This document shows, piece after piece, positions 4,660 to 62,760 of a stretch of 64,000 nt of DNA (position 1 is the stretch's first letter; every line of letters starts with the position of its first letter). A program made the translations under genes and the position numbers. Under the pieces are notes generated by a model. It was given only the letters and a program-made list of their open reading frames with translations, had not been told where the DNA came from and searched no databases. The stretch lies in contig JANJGN010000023.1 of NCBI GenBank assembly GCA_026770705.1, positions 5,828,001-5,892,000 of the forward strand, written 5' to 3'. Source of the DNA: Isurus oxyrinchus (lineage: Eukaryota).

Positions 4660-4940
4660 TTATTGATCCTTTTCTTCGTCTTCTTTCACGTCCTTCTCCT
4701 TTGGAGTTTCTTCTATTTCGGATTTACTGCTGGGAAACTTGTCTTTATTATTTTCCTTCTTCCATTTCATTCTTCTGTTCTGGAACCAAATTTTGACCTG
4801 CCTCTCGGTCAGTCCCAGGGCGTGTGACACTTCGATCCGCCGTTTGCGAGTCAGGTATGGATTGAACAAAAATTCTTTTTCAAGTTCTAGTGTCTGATAG
4901 CGACTATATGTTTGCCTCCCTCTGCGCCGTCCTGCAGCTA
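4660..4940 (-). CDS. HOXB8: HoxB8 exon 2 (homeodomain)
   Basis: [70 protein letters not shown]; acceptor CCTAG|TAG. Confidence 0.95.
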
Positions 4941-5322
4941 CTAGGAATGAGATGGGAGAGAAAGGGAGGAACAAGAAAGAAAGCTCAATGAGGCTCTGTA
5001 GTTGTTATACGAAGGATTCTAAAACAAGATTGAAACACTATTAAACAGTATTCAGTACCGTAGGAAAAATACGCCATAAAACTGCAATAAAACTACAAAC
5101 AGCATGCAATATACCACACTTAAAAAACCGCTCCAGGATCATTAAAGTATAAAGTAATTTACAAGGTACTGAACTTTAGAATCATAAAACACTAAAGTTT
5201 CAACGTTTCCTTTATTGGCTCAGGAAATGAACTTTTCTATGTTTATACATTTGTGCGTGTGTTTTATCTTTCTCCTTTCTGTCTCCCTCTTTATTTCTTG
5301 CTAGCCTATACCAAAGCCTCAC

Positions 5323-21283: not shown

Positions 21284-21367
21284 AACTGGAGTAATTCAGG
21301 CAGTTTCTTGTCACTGCGATCAAACAGAAGCCCAACAACATGAAACTACCTAAGTCACACAGCAGTT
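21284..21367 (-). ncRNA. mir-196: pre-miR-196 hairpin; mature 5p UAGGUAGUUUCAUGUUGUUGGG at 21331-21352
   Basis: Exact miR-196a mature sequence, complementary 3p arm CAGUGACAAGAAACUGCCUGA, basal stem AACUG/CAGUU, canonical position between Hox9 and Hox10. Confidence 0.97.
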
Positions 21368-24788: not shown

Positions 24789-25060
24789 TCAAATGGGGAA
24801 AGTAGCCGATATTTCTCGAACTCTGTGCTCTCTGCTCATCTTTTTCAGTTTCATTCTTCGGTTTTGAAACCAGATTTTGACTTGTCTGTCGGTTAGATTC
24901 ACGCTCCGGCTGATCTCTAGGCGGCGCTCTCGAGTTAAATACATGTTAAAGAGGAATTCCTTTTCTAGCTCCAGTGTCTGTTGCTTGGTGTACGGGCAGC
25001 GTTTCTTCCTTCCGCCCTTCGCCGACAGCCAGTTTATCGTATTCTCAGCCTTTGTACTCT
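24789..25060 (-). CDS. HOXB10: HoxB10 exon 2 (homeodomain)
   Basis: [67 protein letters not shown] (paralog group 10); acceptor GACAG|AG. Confidence 0.93.
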
Positions 25061-26399
25061 CTGTCAATCGGGAAAAACAAATTGTCAAACGACCTGCAGA
25101 ATAAAATGGATTCTGTTCTTCCTCCCTTTCTTTCACCACCAACGAGACCATGGCTCAGGGATGGCAATAAAGTATCCCAATTGAGAGCGGGGAGGGGGTA
25201 ACATTGTCGGCACATAGTCAGAAGGAGGAATGTGAACCCTTCATGTTTTATCTTGATTCTCATTAGCTCAGGCTGTTGTTTCACAACGCAGCATTACCTG
25301 TTCTAATGTAACTTCATGTCGTATCAAAATAAAGAGTTCCAACAACTTTTCTTAAAGGGGACACCTACACATGGACAAATAACTACAGTGAAGGCCTAAT
25401 TAATGTTTGATCGAAAATGTTATTTCTAATGCAGGTTGCACTAATATTGATTTTTAACGATGCAAAGCAATGGCATAAGGTACGGCAGATAACGTTACAA
25501 AAAGACATGGCTGTCCCGAAAGCTTCATTGCAAACATATCACTGTGTTTAAAACACGGTTAGTATAGCTGGGCCATGACAGACAACTGTATCTCAAATTC
25601 TAATTAATAATATTAATTTTCTGATAGAAAATGCTCACCTAGGTTAAGATAAACGGAATTATTCCCTGGGATATCTCAGGCCATTCAAACTCCTATTAAC
25701 TTCCAAGCGTCAATATTTTGTCCAAGCGGCCTTATTGTGAATTGTTTTAGAACAGAATTGTTGCATTGCAAAATAACGTTTAACCCCTATAATTTCGCCT
25801 TTATACTGGACTTTCACTTAAAGGTTATGAATTGTGCAAGGGAGGAGGAGAAATCATTTGACGAACAGGGGGCAGGAAAGCACAAACATGGGTACAGTTG
25901 TTGTCAGCAGAAAGTCATGAAACTTTTTATAAAGCTTCTCCACGCTTTTCATTTTGTATTATTTGCTGAAAGTCTTACATCCTTTTGTTAATTTTAATAC
26001 AATAGTTAACGCATTTTTATACGATGTTTTGCAATTCGCCATCCTATTGTGAGCGTTGTGACGAAATGCTTTAAGCTGAACTGTTTCCATAACCTTTTAG
26101 ACTTATACGTAGTTTAAAAAAAAACATGTAACGCGATCTCTGCGGTAAACCTTGCTATATATGATACAAATGTTATTCATGCATCCAATATCGCTGTAAT
26201 AAATTGTTGTATGAACCAGGAGCCATTACTGACCAATAAGGTCAATATATCCAAACTGTAAATACAATTGCAGGGTTTCTCAACATGTTCACAGTCCGTT
26301 TTGATAAAACATAAGCTGCTTCAGCTCCTCTGCCACTAAAAAGTATTTTTCTGAAATCCTGTGGTTACAATAAAACTAGGATTTAACCTTTAACATTTC

Positions 26400-26450
26400 C
26401 CGGCATGGTGGGCCGAACGTCGGTGCTGTATTTTTTCATGTTCCAATGTT
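26400..26450 (+). mobile_element. Short CR1-type LINE 3' tail remnant
   Basis: GGCATGGTGGGCCGAA...GTGCTGTA...CATGTTC resembles CR1 3' ends (from recall). Confidence 0.4.
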
Positions 26451-26603
26451 AGCCCAGTTACAAGTGCGGTAAACCACTAAATAGGTGGTTTTTAGGGTAG
26501 AAAACATTAAATGTAATTTCGTTGAGGGAAGTTACACCCTCACATAGAACACACTCTTGGCTTTACTGAAAGGGTTTAAGTTCATGGAACAGCTGGGAGA
26601 TAG

Positions 26604-26661
26604 GTTTCTCTCCACAGGCGCTGTTAGAACTGCTGAGTTTTTCCAGCATTTTCTGTTTTTG
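26604..26661 (+). mobile_element. Fragment of the Penelope-like terminal repeat family
   Basis: TTTCTCTCCACAG.CGCTG...TGCTGAGTTTTTCCAGCATTTTCTGTTTTT is homologous to 26985-27040. Confidence 0.6.
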
Positions 26662-26861
26662 AATAGGTTTATGCATTCAGTTACTCTAAGTAAACTTACC
26701 AAACTAATAACCTCATAAAGAAGCGGCCGATATAGTTAAAATTTTCGGCCCATGCAAGAAACGGCGTATATGGTGCAGGGGACAATTCCTTACCGGCCAA
26801 ATTTCAATCAGGTTCAGAGGGCTATCTGAGTATCACAGTTCAAAGAGCCTATAAATGAAAT

Positions 26862-27075
26862 AAAAACAGAAAACGTTGCAAATAACTCGGCAGGTCTGGA
26901 AGTATCTGTGCAGAGGGAGAAACAGAGTTAACGTTTCAGATCGTCACCTTTCATCAGAACGACCTGAAACCTTAAGTGGATCCCTATCTCTCCACAGATG
27001 CTGCAAGGCCTGTTGTGCATTTCCAGCATTTTCAGCTTTTCTTTTAGATTTTCAGCATCCGCCGGATGTTGGTTT
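26862..27075. mobile_element. Fold-back (inverted repeat) Penelope-like element remnant carrying a hammerhead motif
   Basis: Left arm 26862-26943 is an imperfect reverse complement of right arm 26960-27040. CUGAUGA...GAAAC core on the minus strand. Confidence 0.65.
26927..26960 (-). ncRNA. Minimal type I hammerhead ribozyme motif
   Basis: GUU-CUGAUGA-A-AGGU(GACG)AUCU-GAAAC-GUU-AAC: stem I GUU/AAC, stem II AGGU/AUCU, palindromic stem III AACGUU. Confidence 0.55.
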
Positions 27076-30000
27076 TGGTCTACACATGGCCAGGCTCTTG
27101 TTTAGAACTCAAGATGTTATTTTGTTCACCATATTCAGTGTCAGGTCACAATTCCCTAGTTCTAAGTGCATTCGTACAAGACCTTACTGCCTCTTATAGT
27201 ATTTAAAGTCAAGAACTTGTAACTAACAATTGGCAAACTTTAACGGCCGGTCTTTGAAGATCCAGCCGCATATTTGGGAAGTTCCTGATGTTTGTTTTGG
27301 CCATCCGGTGGCAATGCAGATATGCGAATTTGTCTACACTTTTCAGGTTAATAGTTTGTGGGAAAATACGTGAAAGACAGGGGGTTTAATTATTATATTT
27401 CCCTTTCAAATGTGCCTACCTAATGTTTCAAAAGGTCCACAATGAAAGGAACTATATGATAATCAGTCTGAAATCACGCTAGGCTCCTTCAGATAGTTTT
27501 CTTTTCTAGATGATGCGTTGTCAATTTGGTTTTTTTTATGCTGTGAGTGAAAATTGCACCATGTGTTACATTTTCTGTTCAAATACTATATCTTATTGGA
27601 GTAGCTCCCTAGATGAACATGGAAACTGCGTTTTGTGAGTACATAGGCCTGAATACATTTTAAATGCGGATAATTACTCAACAAGACTGAAGTGACCGGA
27701 ACAGCAAGGGCTTGGCAAAAAGTGCTATCCTACATAACCTGGAGTTCAGTTTAAATATTAAAATGCAAGTGTATACTATATTTTAAGCGACCTGCTAATT
27801 ATTGACTGATTGAAGGATGTTAAGAGCATGCTGTAAAGCCTTATTGTACAACTAGTTATGTGCATGAACTCTACTATCGGGTTTTATGTTATAACTGTCC
27901 TTATTATTTTGTAAGAATAAGATGTACTGTATAAAGAAATTGTGTGGGAATTAACTGATACCTATGACTTGCAATAACTTTCACTTTGTTGCGTACAAGT
28001 TCAATTTTAAAAACAGCCAAAATCCCAACTCAGTATAAGGCCTCCATCTTTATTAGCTACTTTGTGCCGTCATTCGGTTCTTTGTGTGAAGCTGACGTTA
28101 TTTCAATGCAGCAAAGATGGCGGAATTGTTGTTGTCGATGAGTGTAGCTTTTCGCCTAAGATTTTTGTCATCCATCAAGAATAGAAATTCCATGGAAGTC
28201 AAATAAATCCCTGAAACTGGACATATCAACTAAACTGTGCAATAAATGGAACACAGCGGTGATATGTTACAAATAGTTTTTTATAAGTACTGCCCAATTT
28301 TATTGCACTATACGGAATTAAAATATGACTAGGATTAAGTGCTTCCTTAGAGATCAACTAAATGATTAGAAAGAAACCAGGAGATTCTCTAAAGTTACAG
28401 AGGAAATATATCGGTAAATCCTAACAGTCACCAATCAAGCTTATATGTCAGATTGAAATAAATGTTACCAATTCAGGATCACCTAGTCTGTGATTTGGGT
28501 GATCACTGCTGATTTCGTCCAACTGCTATCAAAAATGCCATCGTTGCGTCCATATACAGTTCAAGATGTGTCAAGAATGAAACACATGATTCTCCCGTCC
28601 TAATTGAGAGGTAATTTAACTTCTGAGGTGCTCTCGGGATATATCCCGTGGGGCAAGGGGCACCTATGCCTCTTTACAATACTTTGCCTCATTTTCAAAG
28701 TTTAACGTGTGCTTAACATGTCCCAGATTTGCATAACAATAAAAGCATTTGTATGCCCCATTGTTACTTGATGCTTAGTACTTGAACTGTTAGGGATTGC
28801 AATGCTTTTACAAAGTGTTTGCCGATTTTTATGTAAATGACGTGGCCTTGCTACGCAGTGTTTCATTATTTTATGTGTGTGTGTAGGTGGAGGAATTCCT
28901 TTTTGGTGGATCCAAGTTAATTATAACTTCCTCCGAGCTATTGCATCCTGGTGTTTATCCATGTCTTTCCTCGTGTGTAGCGGCTCAGCATTGGCGGGGT
29001 GGGGGCGGTGGAGGGGTTAGGAACTACAGTTACTTTTTAAAAAAGTTTTCCCGGAAAATACAGAAATGTGGCTTAATAATTACCTGTCAGGCAACAATTA
29101 ACTTCTGAAAGAATCGGCAAAGCGCTACCAGTAACCGTTTTGATATTCATCTCATTTCTCGTAGATTGTGTTAGAATCAGATCACAGCAATCGGAATTAT
29201 CCACACCTACCAGGAAATAGCAAATGGAGTACCTCGGATTGCAAATGTGCATGTCGGTTCAATTTGGTTGCCCCTGTGGTTCTTTAATTCCTAATTTACT
29301 CAACAGCAAGTTTTCATATATTGCCGCAATGCTTCTGCAGCGCTGTGTGATGTAATTTTTCTTAGGTGCCATAATCTAGCTCCATGGCAACAAATAGAGT
29401 TTAAGTGGATATCACATGGTGCCACCAAGCTCAATTTATTTATATGCAGTATTTGGAATTCATAATTTCATCTTTGGCTTGTTTTAATACATGAACTAAT
29501 CATTGATAGACTGTCGCTCGAATGCTTTGTTGCTCACTGAATGTCAGACTTAAATCCAATATATATCAACACCCACAATTATTTATTTAAAATATCGCTG
29601 GCCACCAATGCAGTATTTGCATCAAAACTTCAAACCCGAGCACTGCTTGTGGTTTCATTTATAAGCGTATGTTTTTATGAATGCCTGCATAAACTAGCTA
29701 TGCTGCAGTGTTACCCACCCACACACACGCACACATACACAGCTGTTTGTGTGAAGATACACATACTAACGGCAAGGATTATTAATTAACCGATCAGTTC
29801 AATCTGTTTGCCTTTGTGTATACGTGTAATTATATATACCTATACACATATAGATATGTCCATATAACAGAATTATAATTATATGATATATGGGCAATTT
29901 TGTGAACATTTATATATAATTACATTTACACATAATCATGATTATATACTTATGTTCATAAAGCCACTAAGCTATATGAATGAATATAATTATTTAGTGT

Positions 30001-30433
30001 TTTCCGTTGTAAAGTAACCGCTAGTTTAATTGTATGTGTACTTGATATAACTGCAGTTTTATGCTTCCTTCTTAAGTATGCCTTGCGTTTGATAATGCTT
30101 ATTTGTTTTTGCCTAGGTGAGTTGTTTATATTGGGGACTTTTATAGCGATTTCTACTGCAACTAAGGAGTGGCCTTCAGAACAGGAACCATCCGCTGTTT
30201 TGATCTTTAAAAGGGTCACTTAAACGTGTTTGTAATTTACTCTGCCGTAAGGGGCCTGTCCTATAAATTACTCAAGGTATTAATTTGTACTGAGGGATCT
30301 TTGTGCTGGAGACAAAAAGGCTCCTTTATGACCTGAATAAAGTCACCTTGCCGCAGATGAGAGTGCTTGCCTGTGTTCCTGCTCCAACTGCCCTCTAATT
30401 GTTTCTCTTCCTTTCGTTCATGATTTTACCCAC

Positions 30434-31157
30434 CTTTCATTTCCTTCTCGGGAAGGGGTTTTTCCGCGCCAGGAAACTGTAAAGAGGATGTTTCTTGTAC
30501 AAAGGTACTTTCTCTTCCCCCTGTATCCTTTCCCGGGACTCCGCGGCCCGGATCTTTTGAGGTGCTCACTTTTAATTCTTTTTCACCTGGTTTTGAGGAG
30601 GACGACGTAGCGAAGGAAGAAGTGAAAGAAACACTGGAGTGAATCGAGCATGGAGCAGTGACTGGCTGTGGCTGGTTGTACTCCGTCGGTTTGTTTGATG
30701 AATAGCTCGGTTCTGAACGGAAATAGCTGGGCATGGGAACCCTGCCACTGTCATTTGTGCAGGTTTCAGAAACCACCCTCGGATAGACTGAAACCTCAGA
30801 GTGCGTCTTCGAGTGCTTATCCCCGTCTAATAAACAATAGTTGGCTTCTTCCTTCACGCTGGACGTGAAGGAATAAGTGTTTATCTGCTGAAGTCGGCTG
30901 GTGTGGTTGGGTGGTGACGAGTTTGCCCACCCTGCCATGCCTGGCACGTACTGATGTGGAACCAAACCTATACCTTGCTGGCTGTTCATCTCCCCTTGTT
31001 TACGATGTGCTAGGCCAACTTGCCAATTCTGCACCCCGTAGCCCTGGTCCGCTCTGGAGGACAAATAACCCCCAGGACAGTAAGGTTCAGCTCTTCTGGA
31101 GCAAATTAAAGACTTCACTGAAAACGAGCTGGAAGCAGAATTCTCCGAACATGACAT
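30434..31157 (-). CDS. HOXB10: HoxB10 exon 1
   Basis: MSCSEN...SFSVKSLI, SVKEE and VPMPSYFR motifs of Hox10; donor AAG|GTGGGT. Phase 1 gives 996 nt / 331 aa. Confidence 0.92.
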
Positions 31158-62371: not shown

Positions 62372-62699
62372 ATTGAACCCATGGATTCTTGGCCTAATTA
62401 AATCGTGCTACAATGAACGTTAACATTGTGAAACATGGCAATGATCGCTGTTGTATTGAAAACCAGTTTTAGTGAAACTCTGATATGGTGACTCCCTGTA
62501 CAATGAAATATTTTACAGTAAAATCTTACTATAACAACCTCGTTTTATGAAACAGTTTATATTCACCCTTTTTATGGTGAAGACTTTTTATGATCAACCC
62601 TGTTACAGTGAAATGCTGTTATAATGATCATTCTTATTACGAATGTTTAGTTTCACTTGTCTTGTTATAGTAAAATGCTGTAAAAGCAAAACTCATAAT

Positions 62700-62760
62700 C
62701 AAAAACAGAAAATGCTGGAAACACTCAGCATGTCAAACAGCATCTGTGTAAGAACAGAAG
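62700..62760 (-). mobile_element. Another fragment of the Penelope-like terminal family
   Basis: AAAAACAGAAAATGCTGGAAACACTCAGCA...CAGCATCTGTG is homologous to 26862-26910. Confidence 0.65.

Follow-up and report, generated by a model that had tools for sequence, protein, structure and literature searches.

The locus analysed here raises the question of whether a ribozyme motif inside a Hox intron takes part in the expression of its host gene or came along with a transposable element. In a preliminary description of the window, by which we mean the whole stretch of 64,000 nt under analysis, a hammerhead motif within an inverted repeat was proposed as a module acting on HoxB10 or pri-miR-196 transcripts. 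Our main reading, to which we assign a probability of roughly 0.88, is that the structure is an old protein-less insertion composed of two head-to-head pseudo-LTRs (pLTRs) of a Penelope-like element (PLE), likely of the Neptune clade, and that its hammerhead is likely idle for the Hox gene. The copy belongs to a dispersed PLE family, has a layout described for such elements and has diverged at the rate of its family. Nothing was found in the literature on the hammerhead of this locus or on any hammerhead in a shark Hox intron, and the word 'Penelope' is absent from the main text of PMC11979771.

Host gene and hammerhead motif

The host gene and its surroundings were defined by the following features:

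30434..31157, minus strand: coding part of exon 1 of a Hox group-10 gene (open frame; covered by contigs of one putative RNA run)
25061..30433, minus strand: intron of this Hox paralog-group-10 gene, presumably HoxB10 (GT-AG; reading frame continuous over the exon junction; splice sites taken from genomic sequence)
24789..25060, minus strand: coding part of exon 2 with the homeodomain (Pfam Homeodomain, E 1.5e-21)
21288..21361, minus strand: mir-196 hairpin, 5.6 kb downstream of the motif (Rfam RF00256, 68.7 bits)

The fold-back motif lies within the 5,373-nt intron and is sense to the pre-mRNA, as had been described before; the name HoxB10, given at the same time, we infer from homeobox order, mir-196 and paralog signatures rather than from a named database match. 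The best solved relatives of the exon 2 homeodomain are Hox-A9 and Hox-C9, with no group-10 chain among 26 matches. Four homeoboxes and mir-196, the sole Rfam match at gathering score in the window, stand in the order expected for groups 7, 8, 9, mir-196 and 10. As far as is known, this group set occurs in HoxB only, which makes HoxB10 the presumed identity of the gene. Contigs of X20, a run guessed to be RNA, span both exons, and the absence of locus-specific intron contigs is uninformative either way. The same intron holds an AT-rich inverted repeat at 29814-29935, with 35-nt arms that are 77% complementary, and a possible cryptic 3' splice site was read by eye on the minus strand at 26848-26880, where the T-rich end of the fold-back's first arm is followed by TAG.

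The motif itself is given by one feature:

26927..26960, minus strand: minimal type I hammerhead motif of a pLTR (sequence; descriptor match; pairs covary across subfamilies)

Reading of the DNA confirmed the 34 letters reported for minus-strand positions 26960 to 26927, including both catalytic boxes, the extra A after A9, the 3-bp stem I and the GUU triplet, after which the cut is predicted between 26930 and 26929. Two details had to be amended. Stem II has indeed 4 bp and a 4-nt loop, but one of the four pairs is G-U and the core-adjacent pair is A10.1-U11.1 instead of the usual G-C. The loop-less stem III AACGUU is palindromic as claimed, but helix III can be formed by ACGU only, and only between two copies.

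A descriptor demanding both boxes, at least 4 pairs in stem II, a complementary 15.2-16.2 pair and at least 3 pairs in stem I matched a single site on both strands of the 64 kb and none in 200 dinucleotide shuffles, which rules out a chance motif. By the same descriptor, a second sense copy that could serve as dimer partner is absent from the window. The search with Rfam covariance models, a check named in the preliminary description, returned no match to the hammerhead families at gathering score or at E up to 10 in the whole window; three weak matches to unrelated Rfam families (E 0.7-1.5) were dismissed as chance.

According to the available text of PMC4209133, PLE pLTRs keep a minimal hammerhead of which monomers do not cleave and dimers cleave weakly, and the G10.1-C11.1 pair is highly conserved. 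The window motif shares with these published hammerheads the intact boxes CUGANGA and GAAA-NN-UH with stems I and II, the extra 9/10.1 nucleotide after A9 and the palindromic 15.2-16.2 without loop 3, as well as the location in a pLTR, the thousands of single dispersed copies and the arrangement in pairs on opposite strands, published as 100-700 bp apart. It differs in having A10.1-U11.1, as found in its subfamily, in place of the conserved G-C, a stem II of 4 bp and a stem I of 3 bp. Such hammerheads were found in fish Xena, Poseidon and Neptune elements, and sharks are not named in the available part of that account.

Two head-to-head pLTRs of a Penelope-like element

The fold-back and the related pieces in the window are listed below:

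26856..26960, minus strand: pLTR arm 1, from hammerhead stem I, tail-less, sense to the Hox pre-mRNA (profile E 1.7e-23, profile positions 46-151)
26961..27076, plus strand: pLTR arm 2, inverted, 5'-truncated inside the hammerhead (profile E 3.8e-20, profile positions 62-187; alignment)
27047..27076, plus strand: tail of about 30 nt, on arm 2 only (comparison with family copies; available text of PMC8557442 and PMC3846280)
26847..26857, no strand: left copy of a probable decayed target-site duplication (8/11 match with 27078-27088)
27078..27088, no strand: right copy of the same probable duplication (8/11 match with 26847-26857)
26607..26660, plus strand: separate short pLTR fragment of the same superfamily, hammerhead-free, antisense to the pre-mRNA (profile search)
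62660..62750, minus strand: further pLTR fragment, hammerhead-free (profile search)

The imperfect inverted repeat previously seen around the motif is real: self-alignment of 26858-27044 gave 67% over 192 columns, and the fold-back folds with -72.9 kcal/mol (z -4.6). The first base region of arm 2 corresponds to the 3' strand of stem II in the alignment to the family majority. This arm had been thought to have lost its CUGAUGA box; because it is 5'-truncated and starts past the box, at that strand, it never held one. An assembly artefact is unlikely, as the hammerhead is joined to the unique right flank in contigs of three runs from organisms A and B and, in one contig of organism B, the left flank runs on to 26938. 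A decayed target duplication of about 10 nt at the fold-back is probable but not firm: the 8/11 match at the ends compares with 1.8% in an anchored control and with 67%, not significant, in an unanchored one. With four pLTR pieces in 64 kb the density is not clearly below that of a genome sample (P 0.22); the element is thus not kept out of this part of the Hox cluster.

Arm 1 is a repeat dispersed over most large contigs of the 4.98-Gb host genome, which, judged from HoxB10 and this repeat, is presumably that of a shark. The search with it yielded 1,522 first-look candidates, 40 of which were scored and gave 44 matches, and its dispersed relatives are 80-89% identical; a 32-nt core pattern had 97 exact matches against none when reversed. 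A 371-nt query retrieved copies that have upstream sequence in common, reaching about 1.3 kb in the longest one, and this sequence translates to broken GIY-YIG and linker motifs with CX4CxxC. By a loose regular expression such motifs occur in 10 of 30 copies, about seven of them convincing. L052, from the subfamily of the window, retains an upstream GIY-YIG remnant (Pfam E 0.011, under the Pfam cut-off), and an endonuclease piece from a related subfamily had 135,522 first-look candidates. The most complete evidence comes from L121, also of a related subfamily, with a 788-aa RT and GIY-YIG frame comprising YIDD, a CX4CxxC linker and two cysteines inside GIY-YIG; its Pfam matches (RVT_1, E 1e-6; GIY-YIG, E 8e-4) lie just short of the curated cut-offs, and a pLTR-type repeat follows at a distance of about 420 nt from the frame. 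An inverted pLTR just upstream of the L121 frame belongs to an older subfamily and may be a separate insertion.

Since the repeat trails an RT and GIY-YIG frame, or GIY-YIG remnants in longer copies, the window repeat is, judged from sequence, the terminal pLTR of an EN+ PLE, and the earlier classification as a Penelope-type minimal hammerhead is borne out. In the available text of PMC8557442, Neptune is defined by an RT, a C-terminal GIY-YIG with cysteines between its two motifs and a CX2-5CxxC linker, which Penelope and Poseidon lack and which is reduced in Nematis. Domain order, cysteines and linker are alike in the window family, and the linker between RT and endonuclease was found in L121, L043 and L054. 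The element therefore likely belongs to Neptune, an assignment made by the linker motif and not by a tree.

Across subfamilies the stems are kept while the letters change. In 14 hand-picked rows the 10.1-11.1 pair is A-U in five, representing the subfamily of the window, and G-C in nine from younger subfamilies; 96.8% of 126 cells are paired and one pair has changed on both sides, in rows that are related and reflect few independent events. Pairs kept in this way argue for selection on the hammerhead fold in the element lineage, which says nothing about single genomic copies.

To estimate abundance, 60 stretches of 10 kb picked by position (600 kb) were searched with a profile built from 30 copies. 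There were 61 pLTR matches in 28 of the stretches and none in the reversed control, from which about 0.5 million pLTR pieces (0.39-0.65 million) of all subfamilies were extrapolated. Ten head-to-head pairs hold 20 of the 61 matches, corresponding to an extrapolated 83,000 or so fold-backs genome-wide (40,000-150,000). In nearly all pairs one arm extends to the tail and the other ends before it, as in the window. Among 30 copies selected solely for an exact core, 6 also have an abutting inverted arm.

The available text of PMC8557442 and PMC3846280 describes EN+ PLE insertions in which one pLTR is inverted and 5'-truncated, a tail may be present on one side and the target is duplicated. The window locus has the inverted 5'-truncated copy and the one-sided tail, and shares with these insertions the head-to-head pLTRs, a 30-40-nt tail at one end, a duplication of about 10 nt (probable here) and an AT-rich target. 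It is unlike them in that no coding sequence lies between the arms and the total length is about 220 nt. Following the published mechanism, the RT and GIY-YIG endonuclease of the element would have introduced a nick at an AT-rich site and made two copies of no more than the short end of the element RNA, one with the tail and one lacking it, while about 10 target bases were duplicated.

A self-standing non-autonomous family, of a retrozyme or MITE-like kind, which copies the fold-back as a unit, would also account for the frequency of fold-backs (10 pairs in 600 kb) and for the flank duplications that most of them have, with 9-10 of 10 positions repeated in 8 of the 10 sampled pairs. We give this explanation a negligible probability. 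The sampled pairs differ in where the second arm starts (profile positions 40-107), and most of the best-matching relatives of arm 1 lack the same partner arm, so the junction was apparently formed afresh at each insertion. Moreover, retrozymes as described in the available text of bioRxiv 10.64898/2026.07.22.740005 are tandem direct repeats, each with a hammerhead, whereas the window has one motif and inverted arms.

Short copies (L061-L090, L126-L185) tend to start at the 5' edge of the hammerhead and not at the cut. The upstream pLTR is missing in 23 of 30 core-picked copies, and many sampled matches begin at profile positions 40-54, which is partly an effect of upstream subfamily differences. 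Long copies have a branch-like motif, a pyrimidine run and CAG right at this edge, reminiscent of the intron of Penelope, whose end lies at helix I (available text of PMC4209133).

Folding, decay and possible constraint

Equilibrium secondary-structure prediction put the cost of the hammerhead fold at 3.8 kcal/mol for the motif alone, 8.3 within arm 1 and 21.0 within the fold-back, the last value also holding with 300 nt of flank. The predicted share of the active fold in context is about 1e-15. The earlier suggestion that the opposite arm could sequester the motif is thus supported as a prediction. In the pre-mRNA the inverted arm would be transcribed first and is predicted to capture the GAAAC box and the 3' strand of stem II by base pairing, which should prevent the active fold. 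A monomer would be unable to close helix III, the window offers no second sense copy, and splicing would remove the intron while its hairpin is still whole.

Cleavage of the HoxB10 or pri-miR-196 transcript by a working or latent hammerhead would depend on another pLTR RNA pairing in trans or on help from the element protein, and this reading has in our estimation barely any chance of being correct. In its favour, the core is unchanged at its 11 positions and the ACGU palindrome is complete, the orientation is sense, and thousands of intact-core copies (3,745 matches) could be partners. In the available text of PMC11167929, the element protein switches on the hammerhead of an anole PLE, which needs it and is itself dispensable for insertion in vitro. 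Yet that study found no RNA-seq reads with ends at the anole cut, the swapped dimer is predicted at +0.9 kcal/mol when the most favourable competing duplex reaches -9.6 kcal/mol, and besides the minute share of the active fold, stem II is weakened, with A10.1-U11.1 at the core, next to a stem I of only 3 bp and in a window holding a single sense copy.

The divergence of the copy was compared with that of 30 family copies, which are the best matches to one long copy and lean to low divergence. Relative to the family majority, arm 1 carries changes at 4 of 36 positions in the hammerhead (11%) and at 7 of 67 in the body (10%), plus three inserted bases; the 30 copies average 11.0% and 11.1%, respectively. 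Decay at the family rate and the lack of a covariance-model match are both outcomes that the preliminary description had itself named in advance as speaking against its proposal. Three of the four hammerhead changes fall in stem II and reduced it from five pairs to four, one of them G-U. The window copy retains the whole 11-position core, as do 17 of the 30. Against the passenger reading stand the following observations: across the 30 copies the core positions vary by 5.2% compared with 11.1% for the body, and the full descriptor is passed by only 3 of the 30 copies and by no site in the 600-kb sample. The usual break of the motif is decay of the CG in the ACGU palindrome, kept in 9 of 30 copies. 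CpG observed/expected is 0.62 in the Hox intron against a median of 0.27, so the CG was presumably spared because the Hox region is CpG-rich, and an intact core in such a region is not evidence of selection.

Conservation was assessed with a single relative, organism B, about 2% diverged from organism A. Organism B shares the insertion. Its contig over 26637-26938 shows no substitutions and 16 deleted bases, and its contig over 26929-27700 has 14 substitutions, of which 13 are assigned to positions outside the element; the remaining difference falls somewhere within 26929 to about 27059 and may or may not lie in the core. The element has at most one substitution in 214 nt where 3.1-4.5 were expected (P 0.06-0.18; Fisher 0.13), and over the hammerhead alone the comparison has no power. 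A stretch picked after the fact, 26650-27126, which adds 200 nt of further intron DNA to the element, has at most one substitution and the 16-nt deletion (P 0.001-0.03) between flanks at about 2%. The low substitution count speaks against the passenger reading, but we regard it as a loose end and not as evidence of function, and as too weak to exclude constraint.

This count and the extension of the quiet stretch past the element are nevertheless among the points that favour a passenger whose hairpin or underlying DNA later came under weak constraint, as an ADAR-edited duplex, in splicing or as a Hox enhancer, for which cleavage would be unneeded. The stable fold (z -4.6) and the location in a CpG-rich, regulation-dense cluster agree with it as well. 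We hold this explanation to be unlikely. The arms are just 67% alike, the duplex is predicted to be broken into helices of which the longest has 13 bp, and 14 of 67 body positions in arm 2 deviate from the family, so the pairing was not maintained. As for the quiet stretch, it takes in DNA outside the element with the 16-nt deletion and was chosen after the fact, and the pLTR density of the window is not below that of the sample.

A combination of both ideas, in which the decayed fold-back was later constrained as an edited duplex or as a switch hiding the hammerhead until element protein or a second pLTR RNA frees it to cut HoxB10 or pri-miR-196 readthrough transcripts, appears very unlikely. 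Domesticated intronic hammerheads of amniotes occur as single copies, are of full length with tertiary contacts and have been conserved between distant species; the window motif, unlike them, is minimal, lies in a high-copy repeat and decays at the family rate. What it has in common with them (RECK and others; available text of PMC6155905) is the intronic position and the sense orientation to the host pre-mRNA. With no Rfam match, family-rate decay and tens of thousands of fold-backs, the proposed module acting on HoxB10 or pri-miR-196 is unsupported, and the old passenger insertion remains our preferred reading.

The U6 subfamily and the meaning of the locus

In the commonest pLTR type found, core position 6 is U; this type had 59,315 exact 34-nt matches and none reversed, while the type with intact box and G10.1-C11.1 accounts for the 3,745 genome-wide matches mentioned above. 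Examples of the U6 type are located at L181:1211-1249 and in L121 near 4940-4975, i.e., in the copy with the near-intact frame. Changes of A6 (A6C) strongly lower cleavage in Mg according to the available text of PMC7151607 and PMC3088659, and no paper on a natural U6 hammerhead was found in the literature listing. If a subfamily with an altered core expanded greatly in recent times, cleavage would seem to be unneeded or of an unusual kind.

The fold-back in the window is one of tens of thousands of similar scars, and its layout and ribozyme have already been described for PLEs. If the constrained switch were true, a transposon ribozyme would have been recruited into Hox control. The finding shows that Penelope-like elements do land inside shark Hox genes. 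Of more use than the window motif itself is the side finding of U at core position 6 in the most abundant young subfamily of this genome, which bears on whether PLEs need ribozyme cleavage at all.
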